A stretch of DNA of 64,000 nucleotides from an uncultured Bacteroidota bacterium (lineage in GTDB: Bacteria > Bacteroidota > Ignavibacteria > Kryptoniales > JAKASW01): the NCBI GenBank assembly GCA_963704305.1, contig OY969888.1, positions 1,820,435 through 1,884,434 on the forward strand. The letters are read 5' to 3'. Positions within the stretch are counted from its first letter, which is position 1. Every line of letters starts with the position of its first letter. Positions 41,238-57,887 of this stretch are shown here, piece by piece. A program made the position numbers and the translations under genes. Below the pieces are notes generated by a model that was given only the letters and a program-made list of their open reading frames with translations, did no database searches and was not told the DNA's origin.

Positions 41238-42308
41238 ATGCAGCTGTATGGTAAAGAATGGACGCGCCATGAAATTGAGATACGCGTCAGCAAGTTGGAA
41301 CAGATTGGTGGAATTCGCAGGATGGCTCTCACCGAAGGCCGCGAGGCAGGAGTGGAGTTGGTACAGATACGGACAGGCGCCGGCCTTTCGTACTATGTTT
41401 CGCCGATGCGTGGCATGGATATCTCGTTGGCAGAATTTGGTGGAGTGCCAATCAGCTGGCAGTCGGCGAACGGAGATGTACATCCGAGTTATTACAATCC
41501 TGACGGGGCGGAGTGGGGACGAACCGCCGCAGGTGGCCTGCTCATGACATGCGGACTGACGCAAGTTGGATCTCCCTGCGAGGAAGATGGAAGGAAGTAT
41601 GGCCAGCATGGGAAAGCCCATCACACACCAGCTAAACAAGTCTATGCTTCCGGAGGGTGGAAGGGGGACGAGTATGAAATGACGGTTGGTGGAATTACCG
41701 AGGAAGCCTCATTATTCGGAAATCGTCTTCAACTGACCCGGCAGATTCAAAGTAGACTCGGGGTAAATAAGATATTCATCAAAGATGTCGTGGAGAACCT
41801 CGGTTTTGCTGCAACAGCTCACATGATATTATAGCATTTCAACTTCGGATTCCCTTTCATGGACGAAGATACTGAGATCACTTTTCCTTCACGACACGTG
41901 AAGGCCAGGGACGAAGGAACCCCGATTGAAGGGTATGATGCCTGGCAGTCGCCTGAACACGGATACACGGAGAGGGTTTACTACCATGAAGAACTCGTGA
42001 CGGAAAATGGAGCGGTGCCAGAAAATGAAAAGGCTTGTGTGATCATTCGGAATCCGCATTTTCCTCGCGCGGGAGAGACCGGGAGTTTACCAGTATCGGT
42101 GGCACTCACTTGGGACACCAGCCATCTGATGAGGCTCGTCGAGTGGAAGATGCCAGCCGAAGGATTATACGTGCTCGGAATTGAGCCTGCGAACTGCCAC
42201 GTTGAAGGTCGTGTGGTCGAGCGCGAGCGAGGGACTCTTGTTATGTTGGAACCGGGCGAAAGAGTTACGTATCGACTTGAGATCGAGATTACTGCAGGAA
42301 ATAGATAG
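41238..42308 (+). pseudogene. DUF4432 / aldose-1-epimerase-like gene with a single in-frame TAG
   Basis: ORFs 41238-41834 and 41859-42308 are in the same frame. Read-through gives ...ATAHMIL*HFNFGFPFMDEDTEI, where family members have HM.LYH.NFGFP. TAG 41832-41834 therefore replaces a Tyr codon. Confidence 0.7.
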
Positions 42309-42358
42309 CGAATCATTAAACCACTATAGGATTCACGAGTGATTTAGCGTTGAGTAGT

Positions 42359-42402
42359 AAGACCAAACCGGATTGATTGACTTTCGGGTAGCGGGGCAGG
42401 CT
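42359..42402 (+). repeat. Probable degenerate copy (A0) of the defence-island intergenic repeat
   Basis: AAGACCAAAC is identical to 48402-48411. It is followed by CCGGATTG...GCGG..GGCAGGCT; compare CCGGAATG..GCGG..GGCAGGCT at 49305-49334. Confidence 0.4.
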
Positions 42403-42776
42403 TGCATGATGAAGCCAGACTGAAAACGTCTTGGCGGGGTCCCTCCAATAATCATTTCACCCAATTCTCTCTTTGCACGACTATGACAACGATGTCTTGA
42501 CACGTTTACCTTACTCAAAGCTTTGTTCTTGCATATTATTCCCTTTAAATTGATCATACTCAACGCCAAAAGGGCTTTCATGGGTAAATGTAAACACCCC
42601 TTGAAGTCAAGTTCAGATGCGAAACAGTCTCTTCTTCAAGGGTTGAAAGTGCACCTGTTATGAGACTTCAAAAGCTTGAGGATTCTGTAAAAGCTTATCC
42701 GAGTCAAAAACCACCAATCTGTCAAAGAATGAACCGTCATAAGATGACCAGATTGCGAGAGAACTAACTCGTTCAT

Positions 42777-45251
42777 ATGGCACGTTCAACTGTGCATTAC
42801 GCAGATAATACGACAAACAACATCCTGAAGCGATTGCACAATAAGCTTCGACCTGCAGGAACACCAGTTCAAAGAGTGGAATATATCATTGAACTTTTGC
42901 TGCTCCGCATCTTCGAGGTGAAACTCAAACGGGATCCAGAGTTCGCTCCTCTAAGAAAAATGTTTATCGGGGAAAACGATGATCTCCTGTTCTCTTCTTT
43001 ATCCTCTGTTGCAAACGAGAATATGTTGGGAAAGCTAAATACTCGGTTCTTCCCGTTTTATTCTTCGATACTTACAAATGCACGAAAGGTCATAGAAGGG
43101 AATCCATCCGATAAGGTTCGAGATCAGCTTGTACTAATAGAGGAAGTGTTTAGCAATTCAAACTTCAGCAATAATGTTACAAGCGGGAATCTCGGTGAAG
43201 TCATCGGTCTGGTAGGTGAGTTGGACGAATCTCGATTAATGAATACAGACCTGCTTGGCGATGCTATTGAGTCGGCTCTATCCGAGACGGGTGGAACGAG
43301 AGACCTTGGATTACATCGCACGCCCGATCATATACGACAATTCATGGTAGGACTCGTTCTACCTTCGTTCAACGATTCAATCTTTGACCCGACGGCAGGA
43401 ACAGCTGGCTTTTTATTTGATTCGTATGAATTCGTGATGCAGACGGTGAGACCTAATGGTAAGTGGCCTGGAGAGAATTCTCATAAGGAACTTGCTGCCT
43501 GGTTCAAGAACTATTTTGAAACGCATAAGCGTCGAATGCCATCTCTTGAAGTTACCAACAGTTTCTATCGTCAGGGAATTATGGGCATTGAATACCTCGG
43601 AATGATCCGAAAGATGGCAGCAATCAACCTCTACATTCGAGGACTTAACCCAGGTAACATATTGCAAGGTGATTCGCTAGCGAAGTTCAAAAGGGATTAC
43701 ATTCCTGCGAGCAAATCTGTAATCTTGACGAATCCACCCTTTGGGGCTGAACGGGATCAAGAAGCTTATCCAGATGTATGGAGTGAGTATCCGAAAGAAT
43801 CTGAGACAACGATTCTGTTTGTGAAGTTGATTTTCGAGACGCTGGAGAAAAAAGGCCGCTGTGCTGTAATTGTCTCAGAAGGTTTCATGACGTGGGATCA
43901 GAACAGCGCTCGTGCTCTTCGTAAATCATTGCTAGAGGAGGCAAATCTGAGAGCAATAATCAGTTTGCCGCAAGGAGTGTTTGTCAGCAAAGGTGGACAG
44001 GGTCCAAAGACCTCTATTCTTTGTTTCGAAAAGGGATCTCCCACGAAAGAAGTCTGGTATTACAAAGTGACAAATGACGGCTATTCGATGGGAACGAATC
44101 GAAAGGAAATTCCCGGATGTCAGCTTGTCGAAGCTCTAAATCTCTTTCATGAATACGTGCGAGAAGGTAAACGACCACCTGAAAGCAGGCATGCTTTTTC
44201 TATCCCAATTGAATGGATTACGACGCTTGATCCACGTATAGAAGACAAAATTCGCGCTGAGACACGTGTTGAATTGACCGCAAAAGCCGAGGAAGAGAAA
44301 ATCAAACTTGATGCAAAACTGACGGAACAGGTCACAGCAAAGAAAATTACCGAAGAGGAAAAGCAGGATAAACTGAATTATCTTGCCCAAATATGGGACG
44401 GGAAGATTCGAAATGAGATCGCCCGACGTATTGAGCGAGCACATCTCTATTCTTTCAATTTGCCGAACTGTCGTAGCACACTCAGCGAGGAACAGTGTGC
44501 AGAGTGGGCTAAGATCACCAATGGGGCAACACACGCTCCGCGTTTGCCTTTGGATTTGCATTACCAACAAATGCAGAAAGCGTCTATTCAGGAATTGCCA
44601 AAATTGCTCTCCCAGCTTAATCCACGTAATGCCCTTCAATTGGATATCGCAAGACAGATATTAGGAACACTTAGTCCACAAACTATCGAAGAGAATAAGA
44701 AGATCAAAATTCTCTCAGGGCTGCTTGCTTCAGGTAAGAAATATGAAAGAGTAAAGCTGAAAGAATTGCTGATCCTGAATCAGGAAAGAATGAGTCCTTC
44801 GGATTTTCCGGAGGTTCAGTTCAAGGTATTGGGTGTATCAAATGAAGAAGGAATTTTCCTGAATGATTCTCTCCTTGGTGAAGTGATAAAACAAGACTAC
44901 TACCGAGTGAAGAAAAGAGAATTCTGTTACAATCCTTACAGGATAAATGTTGGTTCAATTGGATTGAATGAATTCGAATATGACAATCAAATAATAAGCG
45001 GAGCGTATGTCATATTTGGAACCAATGAAACCGAACTGGATCCTAAGTTCCTATTTGCATTGTTCAAGTCAAAACAATTCCTCGAATACGTAAATGAAAA
45101 AGCGCATGGTGGCGTTCGGATGAATTTCAAATATGAATACTTGGAAGATTGGGAAATCCCACTCCCACTAATTGAAGAACAACACGCGATTGTTGCTGAG
45201 ATAGAAAGAAGCATGAATATCATCAGAGGCGCGACAGAATATCTTGGATAA
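42777..45251 (+). CDS. hsdM: Type I restriction-modification N6-adenine DNA methyltransferase fused to a single HsdS-type target-recognition domain
   Basis: HsdM_N-like N-terminus. Motif I is IFDPTAGTAGFLF and motif IV is ILTNPPFGAE. A long coiled-coil follows (KAEEEKIKLDAKLTEQVTAKKITEEEKQDK). The C-terminal ~185 aa (YERVKLKELLILNQERM..YRINVGSIGLNEF..ISGAYVIFG..LDPKFLFALFKSKQF..PLPLIEEQHAIVAEIE) are typical of an HsdS TRD plus conserved helix. Confidence 0.8.
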   Translation: MARSTVHYADNTTNNILKRLHNKLRPAGTPVQRVEYIIELLLLRIFEVKLKRDPEFAPLRKMFIGENDDLLFSSLSSVANENMLGKLNTRFFPFYSSILTNARKVIEGNPSDKVRDQLVLIEEVFSNSNFSNNVTSGNLGEVIGLVGELDESRLMNTDLLGDAIESALSETGGTRDLGLHRTPDHIRQFMVGLVLPSFNDSIFDPTAGTAGFLFDSYEFVMQTVRPNGKWPGENSHKELAAWFKNYFETHKRRMPSLEVTNSFYRQGIMGIEYLGMIRKMAAINLYIRGLNPGNILQGDSLAKFKRDYIPASKSVILTNPPFGAERDQEAYPDVWSEYPKESETTILFVKLIFETLEKKGRCAVIVSEGFMTWDQNSARALRKSLLEEANLRAIISLPQGVFVSKGGQGPKTSILCFEKGSPTKEVWYYKVTNDGYSMGTNRKEIPGCQLVEALNLFHEYVREGKRPPESRHAFSIPIEWITTLDPRIEDKIRAETRVELTAKAEEEKIKLDAKLTEQVTAKKITEEEKQDKLNYLAQIWDGKIRNEIARRIERAHLYSFNLPNCRSTLSEEQCAEWAKITNGATHAPRLPLDLHYQQMQKASIQELPKLLSQLNPRNALQLDIARQILGTLSPQTIEENKKIKILSGLLASGKKYERVKLKELLILNQERMSPSDFPEVQFKVLGVSNEEGIFLNDSLLGEVIKQDYYRVKKREFCYNPYRINVGSIGLNEFEYDNQIISGAYVIFGTNETELDPKFLFALFKSKQFLEYVNEKAHGGVRMNFKYEYLEDWEIPLPLIEEQHAIVAEIERSMNIIRGATEYLG

Positions 45252-45861
45252 CTGGTCTTTGAAACTAAACCTGAAACAGGAAGAACTAAAGCCACTGGGC
45301 GATGCGGTTATAGAAACCAAAAATGGTTGGTCCCCAAAATGTGAGGGAGGAGATACTCCAGTTCTGACTCTTTCATGTTTGAAACGCGGTCAGGTTGACC
45401 TCAGTGAAATCAAATATACGAGCGAGAACAGAAGGGACATTGATCGTTTCTACGTGAAGAGAGGAGATTTTTTTTACAGCCGCGGAAACACGATTGAGCT
45501 GGTTGCTCTTGCAGGTGTCGCAGAAGAAGTGGACAGAAATGTAGTTTTCTCTGACTTGCTTACGCGTGTTGAGTTCGATGAAATGCTGATTAAGAAGAAA
45601 TATGCTGTCGTGCTCTTTAACTCTGATTTTGGGAGAAAATATTTTGGAAGGGTTCCATACGGAGCTTCACCAAGCATGGTAAAGGTATCGCAAGATTATA
45701 TGGCAGCTTTTCCTGTACCCTTTATGGGTCAAATAGATAAACAAGAAAAGATTATCGCAGATTACGAAATACAAATGAAAAGATTGGCTGGAATAGATGA
45801 ATTGGTCGCTGAAGCAAAACTGCAAATAGAAACCTCCTTAGATACAATCTGGGGACATTGA
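45244..45861 (+). CDS. hsdS: Half-size type I specificity subunit (single TRD + conserved helix)
   Basis: TTG start overlapping the hsdM stop by 8 nt. KPLGDAVIETKNGWSPK..RGDFFYSRGNTIELVALAGV..FSDLLTRVEF..KKKYAVVLFNSDFGRKYF..FPVPFMGQIDKQEKIIADYE is the Methylase_S pattern. It has one TRD only. Confidence 0.7.
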   Translation: MDNWSLKLNLKQEELKPLGDAVIETKNGWSPKCEGGDTPVLTLSCLKRGQVDLSEIKYTSENRRDIDRFYVKRGDFFYSRGNTIELVALAGVAEEVDRNVVFSDLLTRVEFDEMLIKKKYAVVLFNSDFGRKYFGRVPYGASPSMVKVSQDYMAAFPVPFMGQIDKQEKIIADYEIQMKRLAGIDELVAEAKLQIETSLDTIWGH

Positions 45862-48275
45862 TTATGCCCTCTTCTGGTTTATTTTCAAATGAAGCCTCAG
45901 AAGTTGATCTGCGTGTTTATGATCAACTGAAGGAACTGAATTGGAAACTTGGCGACACATTGCTTTATCAGCCAAGCTATGCGCTTAGTGAGGAAGAACA
46001 GAAGCAATTTCCCGGCAGTAAGTCTATCAAGCCAGATTTTGTCTTGCAGGACTTGCAGGGAGCGCCTATTGCCGTCATCGAAGATAAGTTGGATGATCCA
46101 AAGAAAGCGCTTCCCAAATTACGTTTGAAATATTCGACGGTTCTCCGCCCTCGTTTTTTGTATGCCTGTGCTTTAGGATCGGATGGCAAAAGCCTTAGCA
46201 TTCTCTATTATGATATGATGTGGCGCGGTGTCGATGCGGGAGAATTCCGAAAGATTGAGAACTTCATGTCATTGGAAGATATGAAGCGAGTCGTTGATCT
46301 GCATAGGCAAAGGCAGCGTGAACAAGAAATAACAATTGACACAAGCATCGCTGGTGGTTACGATCCGACAATTGGAAAAGATCGTTACTACCATGGCGAA
46401 TGCATCAGGACTCTAATCGAGAGTTACCGTAACGGTAAAACTAAGATGCTGGTTCACATGGCAACTGGTCTGGGCAAAACCAGAATGGCAGTTGCGCTGG
46501 TGAAGGCACTATTTCAGTATGAGCTTGCAAAGAAAGTTCTGTTTGTTGTTGATCGTCGTTTTCTTGCACGTCAGGCGATACAAAAAGGATTCAGTCTTAT
46601 CAGCCCTACATATAATGCCTCTTGGATCACTAGCAGCAACTTTAAAATTCACAAGAACAAAGATATTCACGTTGTCGTCATTGATACACTAGAGATTCTC
46701 TTCAGCAAGATACCAGCGAATTATTATGATCTCATCATTGTCGATGAATGCCATAGATCAATCACTGTCAATCGAAAGCTCATCTTCGATCATTTCATGT
46801 GCCCGAGAATTGGACTTACGGCTACACCGCGCATTGGTAAGCCACCGGTAGGTGTGCAACTCTCTGACGAAGATCTTGCTATCATGGACACGTATCGCCT
46901 CTTCGGTTGTGAGACAAAGAAGCCAGATTACGAGTTCGATCTGGACAGAGGCATTAGGGAAGGATTTCTAGCACCTTATGGCAAAGAAGAAATCATCACG
47001 GAATTGACGCGACAGGCTATGGCAAGCGGAATCAGGTATGACCATCTGCTTGATCCTGACGACAGAGAGAAAATCATCAAATTGCCTAAAGAAGAACAGA
47101 TCGAATTGGAGAGGCTGAACAAGAAAATACTTTCACAAGAGCAGGCAGATCGTTGGGCTGAAGAGATTCGAAAGAATACTCAGTCTGGAGAAAAGGTCAT
47201 TGTATTCGGAGCCAGCCAAGCTCATTGTCTAATGATAGCTGATGCGTTAAACAAAGTATTCGATGATAATCGTCAAGAAAGCCCTCATTATGCCGAAGCT
47301 GTGATCTCTGAGAATGAAGACCTGAACTACGCTCTCAAAGAATGGTTTGATAAGCCCTATCAAAACCCACACATAGTAACCTCAGTCAATATCATGAGTA
47401 CAGGTGTTGATATACCATGTGTACGATACATAGGATTCTGTGCGTTGACGAAATCAGTAAGCAAATATACCCAAATGGTGGGCCGCGGAACCCGGCTCGA
47501 TCCAAAGACTGGGAAGTTCAGCTTCAAGTTGCTGGATTTTGTTGGACTTTGTAAACGTATGCAAGATAATGGACATGGGACACCAAGGGAGAATGTGACG
47601 ACTACTCCTCCTAGTCAAGTCAGGGAAGGAGGCAGTGGCGGCGGTGGTAATGGTGGTATCCATGTCGATGGAATCTTAGATAATCCTGATCCCGCGCACA
47701 TGATCCAACGAGTCACGTTGACAGATAGCGGGATAAAGATTATTGATAACATCCCTATTAAAAAAGCCAGAGAGCTATTCGAGCAAGGTGTGAAGTCGGT
47801 TACTCAACCACTTATAGCGGAATTGAAGCGGAAGGCATGGGAGAATAAAGACTATGAACCAACCGAGGAAGAACTGGCAGCAATCAAGCAATGGGTCAAT
47901 GATCCTGAGATATATTTGAGCGAAGAGAATTTGCAGCGCATCTATGAATTCCCTGGCGGATCGACTTGGGACTTCTTCCTACATGTACTCGGAGTGAAGA
48001 AAATCCCGACTACCGCCGAAAGGATTGAACAAGGATTTGAAGCTTACCTCGATCTCTATAACTTCACCACTGAACAAAAAGGCATTCTTGAAGCTATCAA
48101 AGATGTATTCATTGCAAACATCTCGTCACATGGGAAGATTGATGTCGATACGATTTTTGCCAATCCGGTCTATGCACACTTAATTGGAGAATTTGAAGAA
48201 GTCAACAGCAAGTTCGAAGGAATGCTGAGAGAGATTATATCTGATATGGAGAAGCAATTCAAGATCGCGGCATAG
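45858..48275 (+). CDS. hsdR: Type I restriction enzyme R subunit (PD-(D/E)xK nuclease + SF2 helicase + EcoEI-R-like C-terminal domain)
   Basis: N-terminal nuclease motif KPDFVLQDLQGAPIAVIEDK. Helicase motifs are MATGLGKTRMA (I), IIVDECHRS (II), GLTATP (III) and QMVGRGTRL (VI). There is a Gly-rich linker, EGGSGGGGNGG. The C-terminal FTTEQKGILEAIKDVF region resembles the EcoEI R C-domain. The start is TTG 45858 or ATG 45864. Confidence 0.8.
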   Translation: MIMPSSGLFSNEASEVDLRVYDQLKELNWKLGDTLLYQPSYALSEEEQKQFPGSKSIKPDFVLQDLQGAPIAVIEDKLDDPKKALPKLRLKYSTVLRPRFLYACALGSDGKSLSILYYDMMWRGVDAGEFRKIENFMSLEDMKRVVDLHRQRQREQEITIDTSIAGGYDPTIGKDRYYHGECIRTLIESYRNGKTKMLVHMATGLGKTRMAVALVKALFQYELAKKVLFVVDRRFLARQAIQKGFSLISPTYNASWITSSNFKIHKNKDIHVVVIDTLEILFSKIPANYYDLIIVDECHRSITVNRKLIFDHFMCPRIGLTATPRIGKPPVGVQLSDEDLAIMDTYRLFGCETKKPDYEFDLDRGIREGFLAPYGKEEIITELTRQAMASGIRYDHLLDPDDREKIIKLPKEEQIELERLNKKILSQEQADRWAEEIRKNTQSGEKVIVFGASQAHCLMIADALNKVFDDNRQESPHYAEAVISENEDLNYALKEWFDKPYQNPHIVTSVNIMSTGVDIPCVRYIGFCALTKSVSKYTQMVGRGTRLDPKTGKFSFKLLDFVGLCKRMQDNGHGTPRENVTTTPPSQVREGGSGGGGNGGIHVDGILDNPDPAHMIQRVTLTDSGIKIIDNIPIKKARELFEQGVKSVTQPLIAELKRKAWENKDYEPTEEELAAIKQWVNDPEIYLSEENLQRIYEFPGGSTWDFFLHVLGVKKIPTTAERIEQGFEAYLDLYNFTTEQKGILEAIKDVFIANISSHGKIDVDTIFANPVYAHLIGEFEEVNSKFEGMLREIISDMEKQFKIAA

Positions 48276-48401
48276 GTAGCGTGGGACTGCCGCTCCGTGA
48301 AGATTCTTTCTTCGATTAACTCTAGATAAATTCATTCTGTTAGTCGTGAATCAGGATGGGAGATGGAGAAGATATTAACGGTACAACCTCAGAATTGAGA
48401 C

Positions 48402-48452
48402 AAGACCAAACATTTCCTTCTTACAGTCTTACTGCCGGAATGATGTCCGGAT
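48402..48452 (+). repeat. Defence-island intergenic repeat, copy A1
   Basis: AAGACCAAACATTTCC...CTTACTGCCGGAATGATGTCCGGAT. It shares CTTACTGCCGGAATG and the GACCAA..ACATTTC leader with copy A3. It ends 33 nt upstream of ATG 48485. Confidence 0.7.
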
Positions 48453-48484
48453 TTAAGACACGCTAATCATAATTAGAGGCTGCT

Positions 48485-49240
48485 ATGCAACGGACTAATG
48501 TTACTCAACGCATTAAGAACAAAGCTCTAGAACTGCTTGAACAGCATCCCGAAGGGTTGCGTTATTCAGAACTTCACGCGAAGATTCTGGCAGCTGACAC
48601 TAGCTTCAATCCAAACACCATAAACGGCTGCATATGGAACCTCGACGCAGTATTCCCTGAGAAGGTTTACAAACCATCCAAAGGGCTTTTTCGACTCTTG
48701 AAGAACAAGCCGCCGGAGTCGGAAGCTCCGGAACTCCCTGTCGCAGCCCCAACGACCACCAGTAGGGTCAAGGAAGAGGACTTTTACGCCCCTTTTGCCA
48801 ATTGGCTGAAAAACGATATTGAAGATGTGACCCATGCCATCCCTCTTGGTCGGAATACATTCAAAGACAAGTGGGGGACACCGGATGTTGTTGGAAAGCT
48901 TGAGCCAATGAGAAGCGACATTATCAAAGGACCAACGGAAATAGTATCCGCCGAAATCAAGACTGATACTCTCCAACTTGTTACCGCCTTCGGGCAAGCG
49001 TGTGCATACAAGTTATTTAGCCATAAGGTATACCTTGTTATTCCTCACCAATCTCAAAAAGAAGAAATCTCACGGCTTGATTCTCTTTGTCAAATATTTG
49101 GCATCGGCTTAGTAACATTTGATGCAGAATCGCCCTCGACCCCTGACTTCAAAATCTTAGTGCGCCCAGCCCGGCATGAGCCAGACCTCTTCTACACGAA
49201 CAAATACATGGCCCGGATTGAGAAGGAGTTGTTCTCTTGA
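48485..49240 (+). CDS. Winged-helix (Mrr_N-like) + PD-(D/E)xK restriction-endonuclease-fold protein
   Basis: The N-terminus KNKALELLEQHPEGLRYSELHAKIL..GLFRLL looks like an Mrr_N-type wHTH. The C-terminal half has the ordered motif E..PDVVG..VSAEIK..QACAY, consistent with a D-ExK nuclease core. Confidence 0.5.
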   Translation: MQRTNVTQRIKNKALELLEQHPEGLRYSELHAKILAADTSFNPNTINGCIWNLDAVFPEKVYKPSKGLFRLLKNKPPESEAPELPVAAPTTTSRVKEEDFYAPFANWLKNDIEDVTHAIPLGRNTFKDKWGTPDVVGKLEPMRSDIIKGPTEIVSAEIKTDTLQLVTAFGQACAYKLFSHKVYLVIPHQSQKEEISRLDSLCQIFGIGLVTFDAESPSTPDFKILVRPARHEPDLFYTNKYMARIEKELFS

Positions 49241-49298
49241 GTTCTCACAATGTGGTCACACAGGACGCACAGATCGTCGATGTGTTCTTGAGTGTTGT

Positions 49299-49354
49299 TT
49301 TATTGCCGGAATGTTATGCGGATATATGGCAGGCTAATTATAGTTAGGCAGTAA
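49299..49354 (+). repeat. Defence-island intergenic repeat, copy A2 (both modules)
   Basis: TGCCGGAATGTTATGCGGATATATGGCAGG (49303-49332) is identical to 52859-52888. TGGCAG-N6-TATAGTTAGG (49326-49347) is identical to 54486-54507. It ends 15 nt before ATG 49369. Confidence 0.85.
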
Positions 49355-49368
49355 ATAAAGGAGATTAT

Positions 49369-50136
49369 ATGAATTTAGTTGGTGAACTTAAAAACTTAAT
49401 CCAAGAAGGTGAAAAATTAAGACCATTAGGTGGTTCTATGTTCAATGGTTACAATGGACAAAAACAGCCTGAATATCTTTCTTGGAGATTACAAACTATT
49501 TCTGCTATTGAAGCTCTTGGAAATGATTCTAAGATTTTGTTAAAAGAAATTGAAAAAGATAAATACAGTTCAGTTTTCTATGAAAGCTCAGCTGCGAATC
49601 TTTTAGGTGTTTTGAAAGCAGCTTTATCATTAGCAGAAAAAAAGAATACTAACTCGAATACAAAGCAAAATAAAACATCTCTTCCAACTTCTAAAAATAT
49701 AGTTTTTATTGTTCACGGAAAAGACGATGCTTTGTTACAAAATCTTGCGCGATTTCTTGAGGCAATGAATATAAAACCTATCATATTATTTGAGCAAGCT
49801 GGTAAAGGACAAACTATAATTGAGAAATTAGAAACAAATAGTGAGGTTGGATTTGCTATTGTTTTATTGACTCCAGATGATTTGGGCAAATTGGCAAGTG
49901 ACAAAAAAGAATTAAAACCAAGAGCTCGACAAAATGTAATTCTTGAATTAGGTTTTTTCCTAGGGAAATTGGGAAGAAATCGTGTAGGTGTTCTTTATGA
50001 TGAAAGTGTGGAATTACCTTCAGATTATAGAGGAGTTGAATACATAAAATTAGATATTGAAGGAGGTTGGAAATTGAAGCTTGCCAAAGAAATGAAAGAA
50101 GCGGGACTGAATGTAGATGTGAATGAAGCTATTTAA
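49369..50136 (+). CDS. TIR-like nucleotide-binding domain protein (PF10137 / Cap12-type fold) with helical N-domain
   Basis: AAGGAG RBS. The C-terminal half is IVFIVHGKDDALLQNLARFLEAMNIKPIILFEQAGKGQTIIEKLE..VGFAIVLLTPDDLG..ARQNVILELGFFLGKLGRNRVGVLY..LPSDYRGVEYIKLD..WKLKLAKEMKEAGL, which matches the bacterial TIR-like family consensus as I recall it. The gene is very AT-rich. Confidence 0.7.
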   Translation: MNLVGELKNLIQEGEKLRPLGGSMFNGYNGQKQPEYLSWRLQTISAIEALGNDSKILLKEIEKDKYSSVFYESSAANLLGVLKAALSLAEKKNTNSNTKQNKTSLPTSKNIVFIVHGKDDALLQNLARFLEAMNIKPIILFEQAGKGQTIIEKLETNSEVGFAIVLLTPDDLGKLASDKKELKPRARQNVILELGFFLGKLGRNRVGVLYDESVELPSDYRGVEYIKLDIEGGWKLKLAKEMKEAGLNVDVNEAI

Positions 50137-50275
50137 ATTACTGCCTAACAAGTGGCTCAAGGCGACAGCTTTTTCGCATTCAGCATTTTACGATTATTTA
50201 GAGTTGGTCGTTCCGTTTCGACTAACTTGTTCAAGGAAGCCGTTCTAGTATGTTACTTTGCAAAGTGTGTGTGCG

Positions 50276-50318
50276 AAGAAGATTACACGCGGTTTGCTTA
50301 ATCTTCGGCAGTTGTTTT
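50276..50318 (+). terminator. Possible intrinsic terminator between the TIR-like and CBS-HEPN genes
   Basis: GAAGATTA-N13-TAATCTTC stem (50276-50304) followed by GGCAGTTGTTTTCT. The stem is AT-rich, so the support is weak. Confidence 0.3.
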
Positions 50319-50383
50319 CTAAGCGGCATTCTTATTCCGGGCAGCCGGTTGGCGGCAACGCCGTCATACATGAGAGGAATACA

Positions 50384-51268
50384 ATGGGCTATCAATTGTG
50401 GGTATCCCCTGTCACTGGGTATCGCAGAAAAGGCACAAGGTTTTCATCACTTAAGAAGCTTTTTATTGACAATGTTACCGCAAAGAGCATTTTTGAACCT
50501 CTGCTTTGCTGCCCAGCAAATTCGATGGCTGTAAACGCTAGGGATGCACTAAGAATTAGGGAATTTGATCTTGCCGGTGTAAAAGAAACTGAAGGTGGTG
50601 AGGTCATCGGTTACGTGGTAACAGACGAGCTAGAGATCGGAGACGTAAAAAAATATGTCAAGGTAATTGGTCCTGAGCTTCTAATTTCCGATTCTACACC
50701 AATAGCTGACATTTTTACAGCATTGACACAAAGGGCCTTCGCATTCATTCTGTATGGAAAACAAATTATAGGAATCATAACAATAGCGGACATTAACAAA
50801 CCTCCGGTTAGGATTTATCTATTCGGGATGATTTCTTTATTTGAGATGCACCTTAATTTATGGATCAACCATTATTTCCCTGACAATGGATGGAAGTCTG
50901 AAATCCCTGCGAACCGTATGAATCTTGCACTTGATATTTATGAGAAGCGAAAATGTAATAACCAAGATCTTTCATTGTTGGAATGTTTGCAATTTTGTGA
51001 TAAGAGGGACCTATTGACGAAATCAATTCGCTTTATAAAAGAGTTTGATCTATCGAAAGAGAAGTTTGCTACATTCGTGAAGGAAGTTGAGAAGATTAGA
51101 AACGAATTAGCACACAGCCAAAATTCAATTATCGCAGACATTGAGTGGTCTGATTTTGTTGAAATAGTATCTCACTTAGAAGCCTTCTTGATATGTTCTG
51201 ATTCCAAAGTGGAGCATATAGCCACTGAAGGAAATGATTTTAAGGATTTGCTGATACCAAGTGTGTAA
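50384..51268 (+). CDS. CBS-pair + HEPN (Rx4H) domain protein
   Basis: ORF 50258-51268. Preferred start is ATG 50384, with GAGAGG upstream. CBS-like strands are GGEVIGYVVTDEL and YGKQIIGIITIADINKPP. The C-terminal helical domain has EKIRNELAHSQ (R-N-x3-H, the canonical HEPN active-site motif). Confidence 0.6.
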   Translation: MGYQLWVSPVTGYRRKGTRFSSLKKLFIDNVTAKSIFEPLLCCPANSMAVNARDALRIREFDLAGVKETEGGEVIGYVVTDELEIGDVKKYVKVIGPELLISDSTPIADIFTALTQRAFAFILYGKQIIGIITIADINKPPVRIYLFGMISLFEMHLNLWINHYFPDNGWKSEIPANRMNLALDIYEKRKCNNQDLSLLECLQFCDKRDLLTKSIRFIKEFDLSKEKFATFVKEVEKIRNELAHSQNSIIADIEWSDFVEIVSHLEAFLICSDSKVEHIATEGNDFKDLLIPSV

Positions 51269-51351
51269 TCAGCAGCTACACTCGGACCGCTCGCAAGATC
51301 GCGGTAGCTTAGCCGCAATCCGTTCGGCATAAAGGAGATCAAAGAAAGACA

Positions 51352-51702
51352 ATGCGAATTGTTATTAAGATTCTTATGGGAGTCGTTGGGGCTATTCTCC
51401 TCCCTATATGTATACATTATATTTCTGATGGTCATATCACTTCAAAGCCCGAGATGCTAGTGCCAAGTTACATTCTCTTTGGTGTGTTTGGCGCCATTTT
51501 TGGTTGGTTGTTAAGTGTAATATTCTTCGAGCCGATTGCGGCTTTGCGGGGAGCGCTGCTCTTCGGTTTAATCGGATTAGCTGTTAGTTTCATTCTTCCT
51601 GGTCCAGGGATAATCTGGATTGTAATGGGTGCCTTGCTCGGAGCCGGGTACGCCGGACACATGGTACATGGGTTTAGGAAAATTCTTAAAGATGATAATT
51701 GA
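51352..51702 (+). CDS. Small integral membrane protein (about 4 TM helices)
   Basis: AAGGAG RBS. The 116-aa protein consists of hydrophobic, glycine-rich helices (VGAILLPICIHYI, ILFGVFGAIFGWLLSVIFF, GALLFGLIGLAVSFILPGPGIIWIVMGALLGAGYAG). Confidence 0.55.
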   Translation: MRIVIKILMGVVGAILLPICIHYISDGHITSKPEMLVPSYILFGVFGAIFGWLLSVIFFEPIAALRGALLFGLIGLAVSFILPGPGIIWIVMGALLGAGYAGHMVHGFRKILKDDN

Positions 51703-51915
51703 ATTGTTAGCCATAAATTTGTTGAGAGGTATCTAAATCGGACATACAAAGCAACATTTAGCAAGCTCTCAACTTTATAGAAAAATATTATTGCTAAAAT
51801 ATTGCCTAACCAGCTTTTCCACCCGACTGCGTTTCCATTGTAGAGGTTAGAAACAAGATGGAGCGTGGGTAAAGTGGTTATACCGAGGCGACAGAAATTT
51901 TGACTTACATCAATT

Positions 51916-52767
51916 GTGATGGATAAGGATCAACAAAATATTCCAAAAGGTTCGGGACGACAAGTAGAGGATTATTCTTCTTTTTGTGAGGGAGACATAG
52001 AGCCGACGCTTAATAAAAAGATTCGTACTTTCATCGACGGCACCCAGGACTATATCGTATATCTTGATCCCGATTTCTTTGTTCAATGGTCATTCCGTGA
52101 TTCATATGAACCAAGTGTTCCCAAAAGTATTGGTTCCGTTGCCAATGCAATTGGACACCTTGAGACTCTCTCCAGAACCCAATTGCGCAAGACACAATTA
52201 TACGATTTTGAATCTATGCTTGCCGAAGGCATGGCGCGTATTGTCGGAGATAAAGATGAACATGCCGCCAATGAGTTACTTGACAAAGCAAGAACATACT
52301 TAGAAATTCGAGGCATCGAAAATGCCAGATATTGGTACTTGCTCGGTTCCTCAATCACTGCCGTTCTATGTTTAATTTCAATAGTTTTGCTTTCAATATT
52401 CAGAACGAGTTTGGTGCAGTTTCTTAGCAATGATGGCTTTCAAGTTGTGTTGGGTGCACTCTGCGGTGGTCTCGGCGCACTATTCTCCATTATCACCCGT
52501 TCTAACAAGATATTAATGGACCCTGCTGCTGGAGCTTTTATTCATTACGTTGAGAGCGCTTCTCGAATTATAGCGGGCAGTCTTGGTGCTCTCTTGGTGG
52601 CATTGGCAATAAAATCAGACATCTTTCTAGGCGTAGTCAAATCAGTCAATCATTCGCTTGCGCTAGTTCTTGCGCTTTGCTTTTGTGCTGGGGCAAGTGA
52701 ACGATTCGTGAGGGGAATCATAAAACGAGTTGAAGATTCCACAATTCCATCAAATGGTAAGCAGTAG
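51916..52767 (+). CDS. Membrane protein: about 140-aa soluble N-domain + 4 C-terminal TM helices
   Basis: GTG 51916 or ATG 51919 start. TM segments are YWYLLGSSITAVLCLISIVLLSIF, FQVVLGALCGGLGALFSIIT, IIAGSLGALLVALAI and LALVLALCFCAGA. I recognise no family. Confidence 0.5.
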   Translation: MMDKDQQNIPKGSGRQVEDYSSFCEGDIEPTLNKKIRTFIDGTQDYIVYLDPDFFVQWSFRDSYEPSVPKSIGSVANAIGHLETLSRTQLRKTQLYDFESMLAEGMARIVGDKDEHAANELLDKARTYLEIRGIENARYWYLLGSSITAVLCLISIVLLSIFRTSLVQFLSNDGFQVVLGALCGGLGALFSIITRSNKILMDPAAGAFIHYVESASRIIAGSLGALLVALAIKSDIFLGVVKSVNHSLALVLALCFCAGASERFVRGIIKRVEDSTIPSNGKQ

Positions 52768-52819
52768 TGTGTAACCGGTCGATCAAGCCAACGAGATAGA
52801 CTTAGGAATTTTGAAACGA

Positions 52820-52888
52820 GACCAACGAAAACATTTCACTTTCACATGACATTCTTACTGCCGGAATGTTATGCGGATATATGGCAGG
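52820..52888 (+). repeat. Defence-island intergenic repeat, copy A3
   Basis: GACCAACGAAAACATTTC...CATTCTTACTGCCGGAATGTTATGCGGATATATGGCAGG. The 30-bp core is identical to copy A2. It ends 80 nt upstream of ATG 52968. Confidence 0.85.
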
Positions 52889-52967
52889 ATATCAGAGTTG
52901 TGCGCAGCGAGGGGAGAAGAGATGGCACGCATAATATGCCAATAAATAGTTATGAAAGGATTACGAG

Positions 52968-54413
52968 ATGGGAACAATCATAATTGTAGGCCTCATCGCA
53001 TTCATTATCGGAGTTTCAATGGGCTATTTAATTATCAAAGCCCGAACAAATCGAAAGATTGGAACAATCCAAGCACAATATGCCACCGAGTTAAGTTTAC
53101 ATGCACAAACCAAGCAAATGCTTACTGAGATTCAAAGTGAGCAAAAAGAAAGAATAAAGTATGAGACTCAGTTTATTGAAAAAGATAATCAGTATAAATC
53201 TTTGAAAGGTGAATTCGACAATCTTCAAATTGAGGCTGCCAATCTAAGAACTTCCAATGCACACATCAGCGCAAAATACGGCGAGGCTTTAAGAGCGATC
53301 GAGGAACAAAAGACATTTGTTACCACTGCGAACACTGCGCTGAAGGAAGCATTCAGTTCCCTTTCTGCCGATGCGCTGAAAAATAATAATCAATCATTCC
53401 TAGATTTAGCGAAAACCGCTTTGGAAACTCACATCAACGAATCGAAATCAGATTTAGAGAAAAGGCAACAGGCAATAGATTCAATTGTAAGACCCCTGAA
53501 GGAAAGTTTGAGCACGTTCGATGGAAAGATTCAAGAAATAGAAAAAGCGAGAGAGGGAGCATATTCAGAAATCAAGGTACTACTTAGCAATATGCAAGGT
53601 GCAACAGACAAACTCGAGAAAGGAACCAATACGCTTGTTACCGCTCTTAAGACCTCTCATGTCAGAGGAAAATACGGAGAAATCGGACTCAGACGTGTTG
53701 TAGAATTTGCGGGCATGTCGGAGTTCTGTGATTTCGATGAACAAGTATCGATCTCTACCGAAGAAGGAAGACTGAGACCAGACTTAATCGTGAACCTTCC
53801 GGGACAGAGGAAAATTATTGTTGATGCTAAAGTCCCATTAACCTCCTACATACAGGCTTTTGAAACTAATGACGAAAACGAAAAGAAAGCTCTCCTTGTA
53901 AAGCATTCAGAATCTGTCAGAGACCATTTGAAACAATTAAGCGCAAAATCATATTGGAGTCAGTTTGAAGATGCTCCAGATTTCGTGGTAATGTATCTTC
54001 AAATAGAATCTTCTTTTGGTTCTGCTCTCGAAATGGACAAAACACTTATAGAAGATGCAATAAATAATAGAGTAATACTTGCAACACCCACTACTTTAAT
54101 AACTATGTTGCGTACGATTGCCTTTAGCTGGCAACAGGTTCGAATCGCCGAGAATATCTATCAAATCAGAGATGCAGGAGTTGAATTGTATAATAGAGTT
54201 ACGATTCTCATTCAACATATCGCGGCTGTGGGAAGTGATTTGGATTCCGCCGCACAGAATTATAATAAAGTAGTCGGTTCATTGGAAAGCAGGTTCATTC
54301 CACAAGTAAAAAAGTTAAAAGATATTGGTGGGACGCTTATGGATAAGGATATTCCAGAGTTAACCCAGGTCGATACGTCCCTCCGTCCATTGAATGATAC
54401 GTCCGTGACTTAA
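52968..54413 (+). CDS. rmuC: DNA recombination protein RmuC (N-terminal TM + coiled-coil + PD-(D/E)xK-like RmuC domain)
   Basis: N-terminal TM helix IIIVGLIAFIIGVSMGYLII and a long coiled-coil. The RmuC signature is RGKYGEIGLRRVVEFAGMSEFCDFDEQ..RPDLIVNLPGQRKIIVDAKVPL..FVVMYL. Confidence 0.85.
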   Translation: MGTIIIVGLIAFIIGVSMGYLIIKARTNRKIGTIQAQYATELSLHAQTKQMLTEIQSEQKERIKYETQFIEKDNQYKSLKGEFDNLQIEAANLRTSNAHISAKYGEALRAIEEQKTFVTTANTALKEAFSSLSADALKNNNQSFLDLAKTALETHINESKSDLEKRQQAIDSIVRPLKESLSTFDGKIQEIEKAREGAYSEIKVLLSNMQGATDKLEKGTNTLVTALKTSHVRGKYGEIGLRRVVEFAGMSEFCDFDEQVSISTEEGRLRPDLIVNLPGQRKIIVDAKVPLTSYIQAFETNDENEKKALLVKHSESVRDHLKQLSAKSYWSQFEDAPDFVVMYLQIESSFGSALEMDKTLIEDAINNRVILATPTTLITMLRTIAFSWQQVRIAENIYQIRDAGVELYNRVTILIQHIAAVGSDLDSAAQNYNKVVGSLESRFIPQVKKLKDIGGTLMDKDIPELTQVDTSLRPLNDTSVT

Positions 54414-54485
54414 AATCGTTATTGTTGCGGCATGACCACGTGCTGCTAATGACCATTTAAGTAGCCGGGAAGTTTTGAGGATTTG

Positions 54486-54507
54486 TGGCAGATCATCTAT
54501 AGTTAGG
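54486..54507 (+). repeat. Defence-island intergenic repeat, copy A4 (module 2 only)
   Basis: TGGCAGATCATCTATAGTTAGG has the TGGCAG-N6-TATAGTTAGG frame identical to 49326-49347. It ends 50 nt upstream of ATG 54558. Confidence 0.7.
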
Positions 54508-54557
54508 TTGCAAGAATTTATACTATCTGTCAAAAGAGAAGAGAGGAAGTTTGAGAA

Positions 54558-56210
54558 ATGAAGATGAACAGAATAAGAATTGAAAATTTCCGCTCGATCA
54601 AGAAAACAGAATTTAAGACATCCGATTTCAATATTTATGTTGGTCAAAACAATTGTGGTAAGACAAATTATTTTGAAGCGCTTGAGTTTTTTTTCAACGG
54701 GATAGGAAAGAGTGTAAATGTAGATGATTTAAAGTATAAGCGAGACCCTGCTCTTGAGATCATTGTTGAAGTGGAATTTACTGGCGCGATCAACGGTGCT
54801 GCTTCAATGCAAAATTCTTCAAATAAAACAAAAATTGAAAATGCTCTTAACGGTTCTGATTTAGTCGTGTTTCAACGAAGTAGCTTGAATCCAAAGAAAA
54901 GGACAATGTTTATAAATGGAAATGAAGTTCAACCTGGGACTGGATTTGATGCTGCATTAAATGATTTCCTACCTAAGTTTGAATATGTAAGCACCAAACA
55001 ATATTATGATTCTGTAGCAAAGTACACTAAGACAACTCCCATTGGTATAATGCTTTCAGGTGTACTATCAACAATATTGCAAACAAACCAACAATATCAA
55101 GAATTTCAGGAAACATTCAGAGAACTCTTCGAAGATGATAATTCTCAAATTAAAGCCGAGTTTGACTCTATTGGAAATAAAGTGAAACTATATCTCGAAA
55201 AGCAGTTTCCGGACACCACAAAGGTCAAATTTGAAGTTACCGCACCAGCATTTGATGATCTATTAAAAAACTTTGATACAACGGTAGACGACGGTGTCGA
55301 AACTCTAGCGGAAGAAAAAGGTGATGGAATGCAGAGAGCATTAATGCTTGCAATTATTCAAGCTTATGCTGATTTCAGAAAATCCAACGAGGATTTAGGT
55401 AAATCATTTTTATTCTTTATAGACGAAGCGGAATTACATCTTCACCCTACAGCCCAACGAAAACTCAAAAATGTGCTTCACAATCTTTCTCAAGGTAGTG
55501 ATCAAGTATTTATCAATACACATTCTTCTGTTTTTGTTGCGGATAATTATTCAGGGCAAACGATATTTAAAGTGGAAAAAACGAGTGGTGAAACAGAGAT
55601 AGAAGCGTCGAACGAATCTGAAAAACCATACATAGTTTTTGAATTGCTCGGAGGAAGTCCATCTGATTTATTGTTGCCAAAAAACTTTTTAATAATTGAA
55701 GGTCAAAGTGAATATGAATTTCTATCACGAGTAATTAGTAGGTTTTATTCAGATAAACCAAACATACAACTTATAAAAGCAAATGGGGATATTGATCAAG
55801 CCGAAAGAACCATCAATGCAATTGAAAAAGTATTTTCACCCTTAAATGCGAGCATTTATAAAAACCGGCTCACAATATTGATTGATATGCCCAGTGTAGA
55901 GATGGAAGGCGGCGTAAATCAATTTTTACAAAATTACAATAGTTTAATGACTAATAGACAGTTCTTTCAACTTCCTGTTAGAGATATAGAGCAATACTAT
56001 CCTGACCAGCAAGATACTGTATATGAAAATTGGAAGAAAACACAGGCACAAATTGATGAAGTAAATACAGAGGGGAAAAAAGTATTTACCAATAAAAAGA
56101 AAAAACAACTTGCAAAGCACATTGGTAAGAGTATTACAGTACAGCAATTTGAAAATAGTATGCAAATATGTATTGATGCTTTATCAAGATGTTGGGAGTT
56201 GTCTTTTTAG
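54558..56210 (+). CDS. OLD-family-like ATP-dependent nuclease (ABC-type ATPase + Toprim-like C-terminal region)
   Basis: IRIENFRSIK..VGQNNCGKTNYFEAL is the Walker A motif. GDGMQRAL is signature-like. FLFFIDEAELHLHP is Walker B with the OLD/AAA_15-typical ELHLHP. FINTHSS is the H-loop. The C-terminal FLIIEGQSEYEFL resembles the Toprim glutamate motif. I could not see the DxD motif clearly (TILIDMPS). The gene is very AT-rich. Confidence 0.6.
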   Translation: MKMNRIRIENFRSIKKTEFKTSDFNIYVGQNNCGKTNYFEALEFFFNGIGKSVNVDDLKYKRDPALEIIVEVEFTGAINGAASMQNSSNKTKIENALNGSDLVVFQRSSLNPKKRTMFINGNEVQPGTGFDAALNDFLPKFEYVSTKQYYDSVAKYTKTTPIGIMLSGVLSTILQTNQQYQEFQETFRELFEDDNSQIKAEFDSIGNKVKLYLEKQFPDTTKVKFEVTAPAFDDLLKNFDTTVDDGVETLAEEKGDGMQRALMLAIIQAYADFRKSNEDLGKSFLFFIDEAELHLHPTAQRKLKNVLHNLSQGSDQVFINTHSSVFVADNYSGQTIFKVEKTSGETEIEASNESEKPYIVFELLGGSPSDLLLPKNFLIIEGQSEYEFLSRVISRFYSDKPNIQLIKANGDIDQAERTINAIEKVFSPLNASIYKNRLTILIDMPSVEMEGGVNQFLQNYNSLMTNRQFFQLPVRDIEQYYPDQQDTVYENWKKTQAQIDEVNTEGKKVFTNKKKKQLAKHIGKSITVQQFENSMQICIDALSRCWELSF

Positions 56211-56394
56211 AATATTATTTCAAATAAAAAGTAGGAGCAAAAGCAGATGTTTAAGCTGACGTTATGATCCTAGGTGCCAAAGCCATGGCACATAAACTAA
56301 ACAACATGGAACTCGGTTCGGTAAGTGGTACACTATCGTTGCGACAGGTTAGCTTTAGGCTATCAGGCCACGAACAATGGACATCCAGATTGGT

Positions 56395-56625
56395 TCAGTA
56401 CTCGATAGGCAATCGTCGCAAAACTGAAGCCTTGAAGTTATCGTCACAAGTCAGAACGAAATCCCCTTGTATTCCCGCCGTGGTGACAAATTGTTTCAAC
56501 AGAGATGCGGGGAACTGCACAGTGATCCCATCAGGACAGCGTGCGACCACTTGCTGGAGAGTACCGCGATAGTAGGCCAGATATTCTTCGGACGAAATGT
56601 TGAGATAAAACTCAAACCTTTTCAT
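56395..56625 (-). CDS. DUF2835-family small protein
   Basis: 76 aa: MKRFEFYLNISSEEYLAYYRGTLQQVVARCPDGITVQFPASLLKQFVTTAGIQGDFVLTCDDN matches the DUF2835 pattern as I recall it (F.L.IS..E.L.YY.G....V......G..vQ.PA...RPF.T..GI.G.F.L). Confidence 0.6.
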   Translation of the reverse strand: MKRFEFYLNISSEEYLAYYRGTLQQVVARCPDGITVQFPASLLKQFVTTAGIQGDFVLTCDDNFKASVLRRLPIEY

Positions 56626-57141
56626 AATTGACCTGCTCTGAAAATATGTATCAATGATAAATTAGTGTTTATTTCCATATCAAGCACAGGCAATCAGATA
56701 AGTGTACTAACAGGGCAACGGTTATAATGAACGAGTATGGTCGTCTTAGAGTCTACATTGATTCCAAGTTAGTCAATCCGCTTGATGCCCTGTCCGAAAA
56801 TTCTATCATATGTATGACCGCATTACGACTTACTGAATCATAACGACAGCGGGTACCAGTCATCCCGCGTACTCAAGATTCCGGTGTTAACACTGGCGGT
56901 ACTTTTTTATGAGCTGTCTCCCGAGTCTCTCTGGTGAGATCCAAGGAGTTGCTTCTACGCCGAATTTTGCTTGGGGAGATTTCAATCATATATATTAGGA
57001 TCGAGGCTGATTCTTGAAAGACCGTTTACTTGATATTGGGGCCGCTGTTCAATAAATTTTGGTGTGCGACAATAACATCTAACGCAGGTTCCGGACTTGA
57101 GTTATCGGTCGCCAAATTCTTTGAAAGCAACAAAATTTTGA

Positions 57142-57270: not shown

Positions 57271-57317
57271 CCGGGCCGACGGGATCATGCGTGAAGACAA
57301 GACATCAGAGACAGGAT

Positions 57318-57593: not shown

Positions 57594-57676
57594 GATTATT
57601 CAACGATGTCCGCGCTTTCATCTGATTTGTTAGCTTGATAGTTCGTACACAGGAAATTAAATTAGCATACGCAAAT

Positions 57677-57752: not shown

Positions 57753-57807
57753 AACCCAGCAGACTTTGTTCATATTTATGTTGATAGACTGACTATTGAT
57801 TTCCACT

Positions 57808-57882: not shown

Positions 57883-57887
57883 CACCA

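Follow-up and report, generated by a model that had tools for sequence, protein, structure and literature searches.

The repeat family considered here lies in a 64,000-nucleotide stretch of contig OY969888.1 (the window) from an uncultured Bacteroidota bacterium, where it recurs between the genes of a defence island. We think it likely that this repeat is the cassette-insertion (attI-type) site of an integron lineage in Ignavibacteria-like Bacteroidota, and that the copies in the window are integron platforms from which the integrase gene intI has been deleted. Its longer forms are, as judged by alignment, apparently still joined to the intI promoter, the intI start codon and the spacer 3′ of intI. 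If the repeat is an integron insertion site, then the island amounts to an array of integron cassettes that lacks an integrase, and no new regulatory system has to be invoked. The argument is carried by the homology to real intI flanks, by the core occupying the attI position in relatives and by canonical cassette insertion at G|TTAGG. The array, with its TIR/PDC-S35, RmuC and OLD genes, would be a decaying one resembling a CALIN (an integrase-less cluster of attC sites), because internal deletions and hybrid junctions are many and the integrase is missing.

A direct-repeat search of the window returned a single family of four copies, all on the + strand (48434, 49305, 52860 and 54464). With their parts named alpha, beta spacer and core from 5′ to 3′, the copies read as follows.

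48302–48483, + strand: A1, a putatively complete integrase-less platform relic with alpha, beta spacer and core/attI-like site, aligned to intI-bearing platforms with the whole intI gene missing
48302–48361, + strand: A1 alpha, with promoter-like TTCTTT (48304–48309), N17 and TAAATT (48327–48332), and an apparently intI-derived ATG at 48356
48362–48411, + strand: A1 beta spacer
48412–48477, + strand: A1 core/attI-like site, with the crossover-equivalent box ATTAGA at 48472–48477
49294–49349, + strand: A2, an internally deleted relic in which the first 9 nt of alpha (GTTGTTTTA, 49294–49302) directly abut the 3′-terminal 45 nt of the core
52769–52907, + strand: A3, a hybrid junction made of an attC 5′ half, then the beta spacer, then an intact core
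54442–54514, + strand: A4, the copy whose core has diverged most; it terminates in GTTAGGT (54502–54508)

The 30-mer TGCCGGAATGTTATGCGGATATATGGCAGG forms an exact pair at 49304–49333 and 52859–52888 (0 expected in 100 shuffles), and TGGCAG-N6-TATAGTTAGG another at 49327–49348 and 54486–54507 (again 0 expected). A profile made solely from copies in other genomes recovered A1 over its full length (48302–48483, profile positions 1–185, E=5e-22), A3 at 52797–52892 (positions 70–169, E=1e-22), A2 at 49300–49358 (positions 131–189, E=4e-15) and A4 at 54464–54517 (E=2e-5, or 1e-13 with a profile that includes the window copies). No copy beyond A1–A4 emerged from the profile searches of the window.

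Much of the original prediction, which had been made from the letters alone, stands. The perfectly duplicated 30-mer is there, with a start at 49304 where 49303 had been given, one off, and so is the TGGCAG-N6 module shared by two copies. The leader GACCAA..ACATTTC is real, being part of the conserved beta spacer and present in A1 and A3. Gene starts were said to follow the clear copies, and same-strand starts do lie at +2, +15, +61 and +44 nt. The differing base composition of these genes holds as well, G+C being 0.32–0.47 per gene versus 0.50 in the left flank, as it is 32–47% for the genes of the whole island at ~42.3–57 kb. The two weak copies that had been proposed at 42359–42402 and 50322–50352 fell away, since neither profile matched them at E≤10; by eye, 50313–50352 looks like a heavily degraded copy (GTTGTTTTCT + GCATTCTTATTCCGG) that has no statistical support. 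The family as such is thus genuine, but its extent had been drawn too short, A1 alone measuring ~182 nt.

The nature of the element became apparent from its surroundings in relatives. At three loci (L012, L019 and L032) a tyrosine recombinase gene ends immediately 5′ of the element. On chromosome OY969800.1 (L012/L041) the core follows the gene of a 340-aa integron integrase that scores 434 bits against TIGR02249 of NCBIfam (cut-off 265) and aligns end to end with the VchIntIA structure 2a3v (E=1e-87), IntI-specific insertion included. Relatives of this IntI number in the thousands, many of them labelled integron integrase and belonging to Ignavibacteriales or Bacteroidota metagenome-assembled genomes (MAGs). 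Six intI loci were retrieved from relatives, OY969800.1 among them once more with longer flanks. In all six, intI is co-stranded with the array, points its 3′ end towards it and has a core-like site past its stop codon, at L039 beyond an inserted insertion sequence (IS). A core-like site right after the intI stop is also found in L019, L032, L036, L037, L038 and L040, where IntI identity is 68–93% for those genes that are complete. This 'inverted integrase' layout, in which intI shares the strand of the cassettes and turns its 3′ end to them, is known from Treponema and Chlorobi.

In the relatives the 58-nt core, CATAACATTCTTACTGCCGGAATGTTATGCGGATATATGGCAGGCTAATTATAG|TTAGG, sits directly 3′ of intI and directly 5′ of the first cassette, which is the attI position. 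It consists of an inverted repeat, CATAACATTC/GAATGTTATG, followed by TGGCAGGCTAATTATAG|TTAGG, and its consensus is CATAACATTCTTACTGCCGGAATGTTATGCGGATATATGGCAGGCTAATTATAGTTAGG. The arms of the inverted repeat co-vary in distant integrons (CTATCAC/GTGATAG, ATATCAT/ATGATAT, CTATCA/TGATAG), and the 3′ part, ATGGCAG-TATAATTAATAGTTA, is unchanged there. An alignment of 20 sequences contains two-sided changes in 6 of the 10 palindrome pairs and none in a CTGCC/GGCAG pairing.

Downstream of the core, OY969800.1 carries 11 canonical attC sites of ~150 nt each. They are laid out as GCCTAAC-CAGTC-GCT[C]AAGCTG[A]CGG ... CCGCAGCTTAGC-TCCGGTCC-GTTAGGC and fold well (−24 to −34 kcal/mol). At the start of each cassette stands its own attC's R″ box in reverse complement, matching over 7/7 nucleotides in all 11 and 10/10 in 9, and the agreement follows the boxes through their variation (GTTAGAA/TTCTAAC, GTTAGGG/CCCTAAC, GTTATGC/GCATAAC, GTTAGCC/GGCTAAC). 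The first cassette is included, its start being given by the core's own GTTAGAACGC, and the cassettes of L040 have the same complementarity. Such agreement between start and R″ box is a classical cassette signature and places the crossover at G|TT, where the core ends on its 3′ side. With the crossover at this point the core is probably an attI-type insertion site, and the TIR gene of the window is a bona fide integron cassette. In the latter, GTTAGGCAGTAAT at the end of A2 (49343–49355) and ATTACTGCCTAAC at 50137–50149 are complementary over 13/13 nucleotides. Seen from the cassette itself, TTAGGCAGTAAT at its start is matched exactly, in reverse complement, by ATTACTGCCTAA(C) at 50137–50149, just past the TIR stop codon (50134–50136). 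The sequence at 50143, GCCTAAC-AAGTG-GCTCAAGG, is a canonical attC 5′ half (profile E=0.036) whose 3′ half has decayed. A2 ends in GTTAGGC (49343–49349), and we infer a crossover between 49343 and 49344. The GTTRRRY end is seen as GTTAGGC in A2 and GTTAGGT in A4, with the variants ATTAGAG in A1 and GTTGTGC in A3.

The sequences upstream of the core speak for a platform that has lost its integrase gene. Alpha, the module 5′ of the core in many copies (GGTTGTTTCTTCGAGAACCTCC...TAAATT.TGTCGTGGCACGAAACAAGATGGCAC), is the sequence directly 5′ of intI in OY969800.1, in L036 and at the intI pseudogene of L019, and its ATG is the intI start codon. The intact platform would accordingly be ordered alpha (TTGyTT-N17-TAwATT, ~20 nt, ATG), intI, beta spacer, core. 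A multiple alignment reveals a nested deletion series of platform forms: alpha-ATG-intI-beta-core in L041 and L036, the same with an internal intI deletion in L019, alpha-ATG-beta-core without intI and with identical end points in L017, L027, L031 and A1, and alpha-ATG-core in L021, L027 and L030. This nested series leads us to regard the elements of the window as integron platforms after intI loss, A1 probably being a platform with intI deleted and A2, A3 and A4 the products of further internal deletions or of fusion with an attC half. A2 is without the left arm of the core palindrome. In A3 the attC 5′ half, GTGTAAC-CGGTC-GATCAAGCC (52769–52789), comes right after a stop codon at 52765–52767 and matches the 5′-half profile weakly (52772–52788, E=2); the beta spacer (52790–52836) and a core with both palindrome arms (52837–52903) follow, the latter ending in the R′ box GTTGTGC (52897–52903).

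The hexamers TTGyTT-N17-TAwATT are present in 12/12 alpha copies, A1 included, with the spacing fixed at 17 nt, and the alpha ATG lies 20 nt past the −10-like hexamer (23 nt in A1). They are most simply taken as a putative integrase promoter. As intI and the cassettes point the same way, transcription from it would extend into the array too. The promoter part of alpha is lost from A2 and A4. By eye, alpha contains no convincing LexA box. We also considered alpha-core as a separate cassette with a sharp G|TT left boundary and rejected this, as conservation runs 5′ of alpha in several copies (CCCGCGAAAGCCA etc.).

At L041/L012 the motif that opens the core, GATAACATTC, recurs as the last intI codons (LDNIP*), where a second imperfect palindrome, GGAATGATAT, follows, and intI codons 6–9 hold a near copy, GATAACTTCT. 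Short direct repeats of the GATAACATTC type within intI could have mediated its deletions. In the complete integron of L041 (5641–11151), alpha/core-type junctions with GIDE-LemA, DUF3592, hydrolase and SDR genes are found upstream of intI; with these upstream and the 11 attC cassettes downstream, intI here is embedded in the array and not at its end. The IS of L039 (11141–12533, DDE_Tnp_1) separates intI from the core-like site, and further on (15361–20187) a Transposase_20 gene and a 109-aa open reading frame (ORF) are duplicated within the array.

The remaining junctions and the genes of the window array are these.

48485–56210, + strand: co-oriented cassette-like genes between the junctions, G+C 0.32–0.47
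49344–50149, + strand: TIR gene cassette (PDC-S35 / CAP12-Pycsar TIR), with Pfam and PADLOC matches
51263–51328, + strand: attC-like short site between genes 50384–51268 and 51352–51702
51804–51873, + strand: tentative degraded junction, an R″-like box GCCTAAC (51804–51810) and then GGTTAGAAACAAGATGGAGC

From 48485 to 56210 the genes encode a 251-aa protein of unknown function, the TIR/PDC-S35 protein, proteins of 294 aa (weak HEPN_Apea match), 116 aa and 283 aa, RmuC and, downstream of A4 at 54558–56210, an OLD-family ATPase-nuclease (PADLOC Old, 3e-60). Partial attC matches occur at 50143 (5′ half), 51263–51328, 51804 and 52769. The short site at 51263–51328 is laid out as GTGTAAT ... GCTAC/GTAGC ... 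GCTTAGC-CGCAATCC-GTTCGGC, with R′ at 51322–51328, and is matched by the attC 3′-half profile at 51306–51324 (E=0.011) and by the whole-attC profile (E=0.023). Matches within 51804–51873 are weak (R″ half E=16, platform profile E=1.3) and the rest was read by eye; its GGTTAGAAACAAGATGGAGC is tentatively a remnant of the 3′ end of alpha. Between these two sites, the non-coding stretch 51703–51800 opens with G|TTAGCC right after the stop codon at 51702, and TTAGC/GCTAA closes a long hairpin in it, GTTGAGAG...CTCTCAAC; possibly this stretch is a cassette without an ORF.

How such an array might have arisen can be outlined as follows. An IntI supplied from elsewhere would once have recombined these sites (attI × attC, attI × attI), and each gene with its adjoining relic would then have acted as a cassette, building up the array. 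Units bounded by relics and moving as cassettes would explain the identical deletion end points in several genomes as well as the four dispersed loci on one chromosome. Where alpha is kept (A1), its promoter may transcribe the downstream cassettes. The array would now be largely a fossil, CALIN-like, that incidentally holds anti-phage genes.

A number of observations sit uneasily with this account. Neither an intI gene nor a pseudogene was found in the 64 kb of the window (tblastn with the L012 IntI, E<1e-3), Pfam found no recombinase among 10 flanking ORFs (38.2–42.6 and 56.3–60.8 kb), and no intI lies within about 4 kb of the array, the distance used to call a complete integron. A1 and A3 have ATTAGA and GTTGTG instead of GTTAGG. 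The TIR gene is the sole cassette of the window with the cassette-end signature, and the genes after A1, A3 and A4 have no recognisable attC. Recombination in the window is argued for from homology, while binding and recombination of the core by IntI are putative and the promoter activity of alpha is suggested by a consensus match. Several attI-type relics in one array are not explained by the textbook attI × attC reaction, and hybrid junctions (attC 5′ half plus core) are put down to simple deletions, a putative step.

A bolder version of this account would turn the relics into mobile elements. Integrase-less platforms (promoter, ATG and attI, 120–185 nt) might be ORF-less 'promoter cassettes' that are moved by an IntI acting in trans (attI × attI or attI × attC), seed small integrase-less arrays across Bacteroidota chromosomes and provide each captured gene, here anti-phage genes, with a promoter of its own. 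We regard this as a speculation, conceivable yet rather doubtful. If true, promoter cassettes would avoid the silencing with distance from the promoter Pc that affects classical integrons.

The element is spread over several lineages. A scan of one genome per species with a degenerate pattern spanning all four window copies found true copies, clustered, in four MAGs (two 'Bacteroidetes', one Kryptoniota and one Ignavibacteria; chance hits set aside). The 'Bacteroidetes' MAG chromosomes concerned are OY969815.1, with 4 loci, and OY969800.1, and copies lie at 0.18, 1.11, 1.99 and 2.92 Mb on one chromosome. Six further contigs came from a metagenome scan, one of them with 4 copies in 3.3 kb; the viral contigs scanned contained 0 copies. 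For most of 25 copies a same-strand ORF starts 2–45 nt past the final TTAGG, the exceptions being two with the ORF further off and one where the contig ends first. Genes following the element in other genomes encode two glyoxalases, a methyltransferase, a zinc dehydrogenase and PNPOx-like, DNA-alkylation-repair, EVE, DUF5655 and CBS proteins. This is typical integron-cassette cargo and the element has no defence specificity. The ordinary nature of this cargo means that the element is not a defence-specific regulator.

Exact-protein look-ups with the TIR, 251-aa and RmuC proteins returned only short contigs of the same locus and no cassette in another context. Two of these, Logan contigs L042 and L043 of run ERR10755942, begin 65 nt before the TIR start codon and 109 nt before that of RmuC, so that the TIR contig has its end within A2 and the RmuC contig where the 30-mer of A3 begins. 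The element breaks short-read assemblies and may hide such arrays in MAGs. The MAG contigs with intI at L036, L037 and L038 stop 0.2–2.4 kb past the integrase gene, which suggests assembly breaks at repeated junctions.

A different function for the element is conceivable, and the original prediction had offered three: a promoter or operator common to the defence genes, a junction or recombination site of cassette accretion, and a small structured RNA leader. Some observations favour a shared promoter or operator without any role in recombination, with a regulator binding CATAACATTC/GAATGTTATG and co-regulating the downstream genes: TTGyTT-N17-TAwATT is conserved in alpha, a promoter scan gives TTGAGG-17-TATAGT in A4, compensatory changes keep the inverted repeat (6/10 pairs), and the element is placed strictly just 5′ of ORFs. 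Yet alpha is missing from A2 and A4 and one arm of the inverted repeat from A2, the conservation ends exactly at G|TTAGG, where cassettes start, and promoter-like sites in the region are no commoner than in shuffles. The element is moreover tied to intI in every intI locus examined and its cargo is functionally unrelated, so that we consider such a purely regulatory role unlikely. Of the predicted promoter there remains the promoter-like alpha of the long form; a promoter common to all copies does not, as alpha is lost in A2 and A4 and ordinary genes follow elsewhere. Sigma-54 (TGGCA-N6-TTGC) and extracytoplasmic-function (GGAAT-N16-CGT) promoters were considered for the core and rejected, the −12 GC and the CGT being, on visual inspection, missing or not conserved, and the Bacteroidetes −7 motif TAnnTTTG has no exact match. 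The predicted cassette-accretion site, by contrast, is supported by the place of the element between intI and the first cassette in relatives and by canonical cassettes inserted exactly at G|TTAGG. The label of defence island also holds, the PDC-S35 TIR, RmuC and OLD genes lying next to a type I restriction-modification (R-M) system; the repeat, though, reflects the island's integron origin and not a defence regulon.

Ordinary attC sites, that is single-stranded DNA hairpins at cassette 3′ ends, share with the elements the GTTRRRY end and the position between co-oriented ORFs, and the core can even be drawn as R″(7)-5-L″(7)-20-L′(9)-6-R′(7), ~61 nt, a typical attC size. The window elements, however, fold as DNA no better than shuffles (z −2.0 to +1.7), it is the internal palindrome that covaries and not the pairing of the ends (in L037 CTATCAC/GTGATAG), and the unpaired extra bases fall on the 3′ arm, their place in the 150-nt attC of this lineage being the 5′ arm, as in GCT[C]AAGCTG[A]CGG. 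The element also occupies the attI position in relatives. On the covariation and the arm bearing the bulges the core was rejected as a canonical 61-nt attC and falls outside the attC class; that the elements are attC sites is therefore very unlikely. A home-made scan for RYYYAAC...GTTRRRY hairpins found no attC in the island and revealed the 150-nt attC sites in L012 and L019. As for a 5′ leader, be it a structured RNA or a peptide (MAHNILTAGMLCGYTAG*) running from the alpha ATG through the core and controlling downstream translation, many copies keep a short ORF with a TAA stop, as read from the sequence, and in A1 an ORF of 37 codons in the same frame spans the whole element. Core substitutions are nevertheless mostly non-synonymous, the copy at 3297 of L027 is frameshifted, three gamma copies stop after 6–7 codons, and in intact platforms the ATG is the start codon of intI. 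Single-strand folding gave no significant fold for any window junction, and Rfam 15 (42000–58500, E≤1) only tRNA-Asp. The structured RNA leader that had been suggested, without an Rfam match and folding no better than shuffles, thus finds no support, and a leader of either kind is extremely improbable. It would be hardly credible, finally, for the element to be a non-autonomous transposon resembling a miniature inverted-repeat transposable element and unrelated to integron recombination. Copies are indeed dispersed over one chromosome and the short forms derive from a long gene-bearing form, but there are neither terminal inverted repeats nor target-site duplications, the long form codes for no enzyme but an integron integrase, and the element has a single orientation to the following ORF and ends where cassettes cross over. 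An origin as duplicated att sites of the tRNA-Asp nearby was likewise discarded, as the element does not resemble the 3′ end of that tRNA.

The surroundings of the array have features of their own. The type I R-M operon (42777–48275) encodes an 824-aa HsdM with a C-terminal specificity (Methylase_S) domain, a 205-aa half-size HsdS and HsdR; since no copy of the element lies 5′ of this operon, it is probably outside the cassette array. Right where the low-GC island starts on its left side, two consecutive + strand ORFs, 41238–41834 and 41859–42308, each encode one part of a DUF4432 protein (profile positions 2–164 and 175–304), the split being due to a frameshift, to pseudogene formation or to misassembly. 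On the other side, two partial tRNA-Asp copies (57142–57280 and 57677–57752) precede an intact tRNA-Asp (57808–57883), the only one called by ARAGORN and Rfam. Both partial copies have the same ~49-nt hairpin-rich insertion in the D-loop (CCCGCCTARTGGCGGGATTTCGTC.CGA.CGGTGTTCGGGACTCAAT), in the first the T-arm is replaced by TCCCGATTAAGATCGGGAAG, and between them lies a 100-aa GIY-YIG ORF (57291–57593, + strand, Pfam). The partial copies may have been left behind when the island integrated at tRNA-Asp, or may represent a small element that was inserted.

With the repeat read as an attI-type site, what seemed to be a new regulatory repeat of defence islands can be recognised as the mark of an integron in a phylum that has received little study, and the analysis gives a sequence definition of the attI and the ~150-nt attC sites of Ignavibacteria-type integrons. 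Tools based on attC could miss arrays with attI or platform-relic junctions. Should the relics be active both as promoters and in recombination, cassettes, including anti-phage ones, would be expressed and shuffled without a neighbouring integrase.

Integrons have already been reported in Ignavibacteriae (PMC9024848). With the standard integron platform (Pint - intI - attI) the present system shares, in relatives, the site between intI and the first cassette, the GTTRRRY end, the insertion at G|TT and a bona fide IntI (TIGR02249). It differs in that the integrase gene is deleted in the window while promoter, ATG and 3′ spacer appear to remain, in that the site is reiterated four times in 6 kb, and in the covarying 10-bp inverted repeat upstream of the simple site in the present attI. 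A full-text search of the integron literature found no array with reiterated junctions made of attI, Pint and intI-scar relics; nearest are the Delta-attI-type cassettes (PMC12901181), in which genes are likewise bounded by attI-derived sites and not by attC. In class 1 integrons attI × attI recombination is efficient (Sci Rep 2026, PMC12901181). Those cassettes, however, belong to class 1 and 2 clinical integrons and have short attI remnants, whereas the present relics retain Pint together with the 5′ end of intI, come from environmental Bacteroidota and are dispersed over the chromosome, with putative activity. CALINs are known as integrase-less clusters comprising a minimum of two attC sites (PMC4889954, 2016), defined as lying on one strand, <4 kb apart and with no intI nearby. 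The window is likewise an integrase-less, co-oriented chromosomal cassette cluster, but its junctions are mostly attI-type relics and canonical attC is present only as halves or weak matches. Defence cassettes in sedentary chromosomal integrons are known as well (Darracq et al., bioRxiv 10.1101/2024.07.02.601686) and the small anti-phage genes of the window (TIR, OLD, RmuC-like) would be comparable integron cassettes; those, in contrast, reside in Vibrio arrays with uniform attC and an active IntI, while the array of the window is short, decaying, from another phylum and located beside a type I R-M system and tRNA-Asp. Integrons, attI, CALINs and defence cassettes are thus all familiar; what is unusual here is the reiteration of attI/Pint relics inside arrays.

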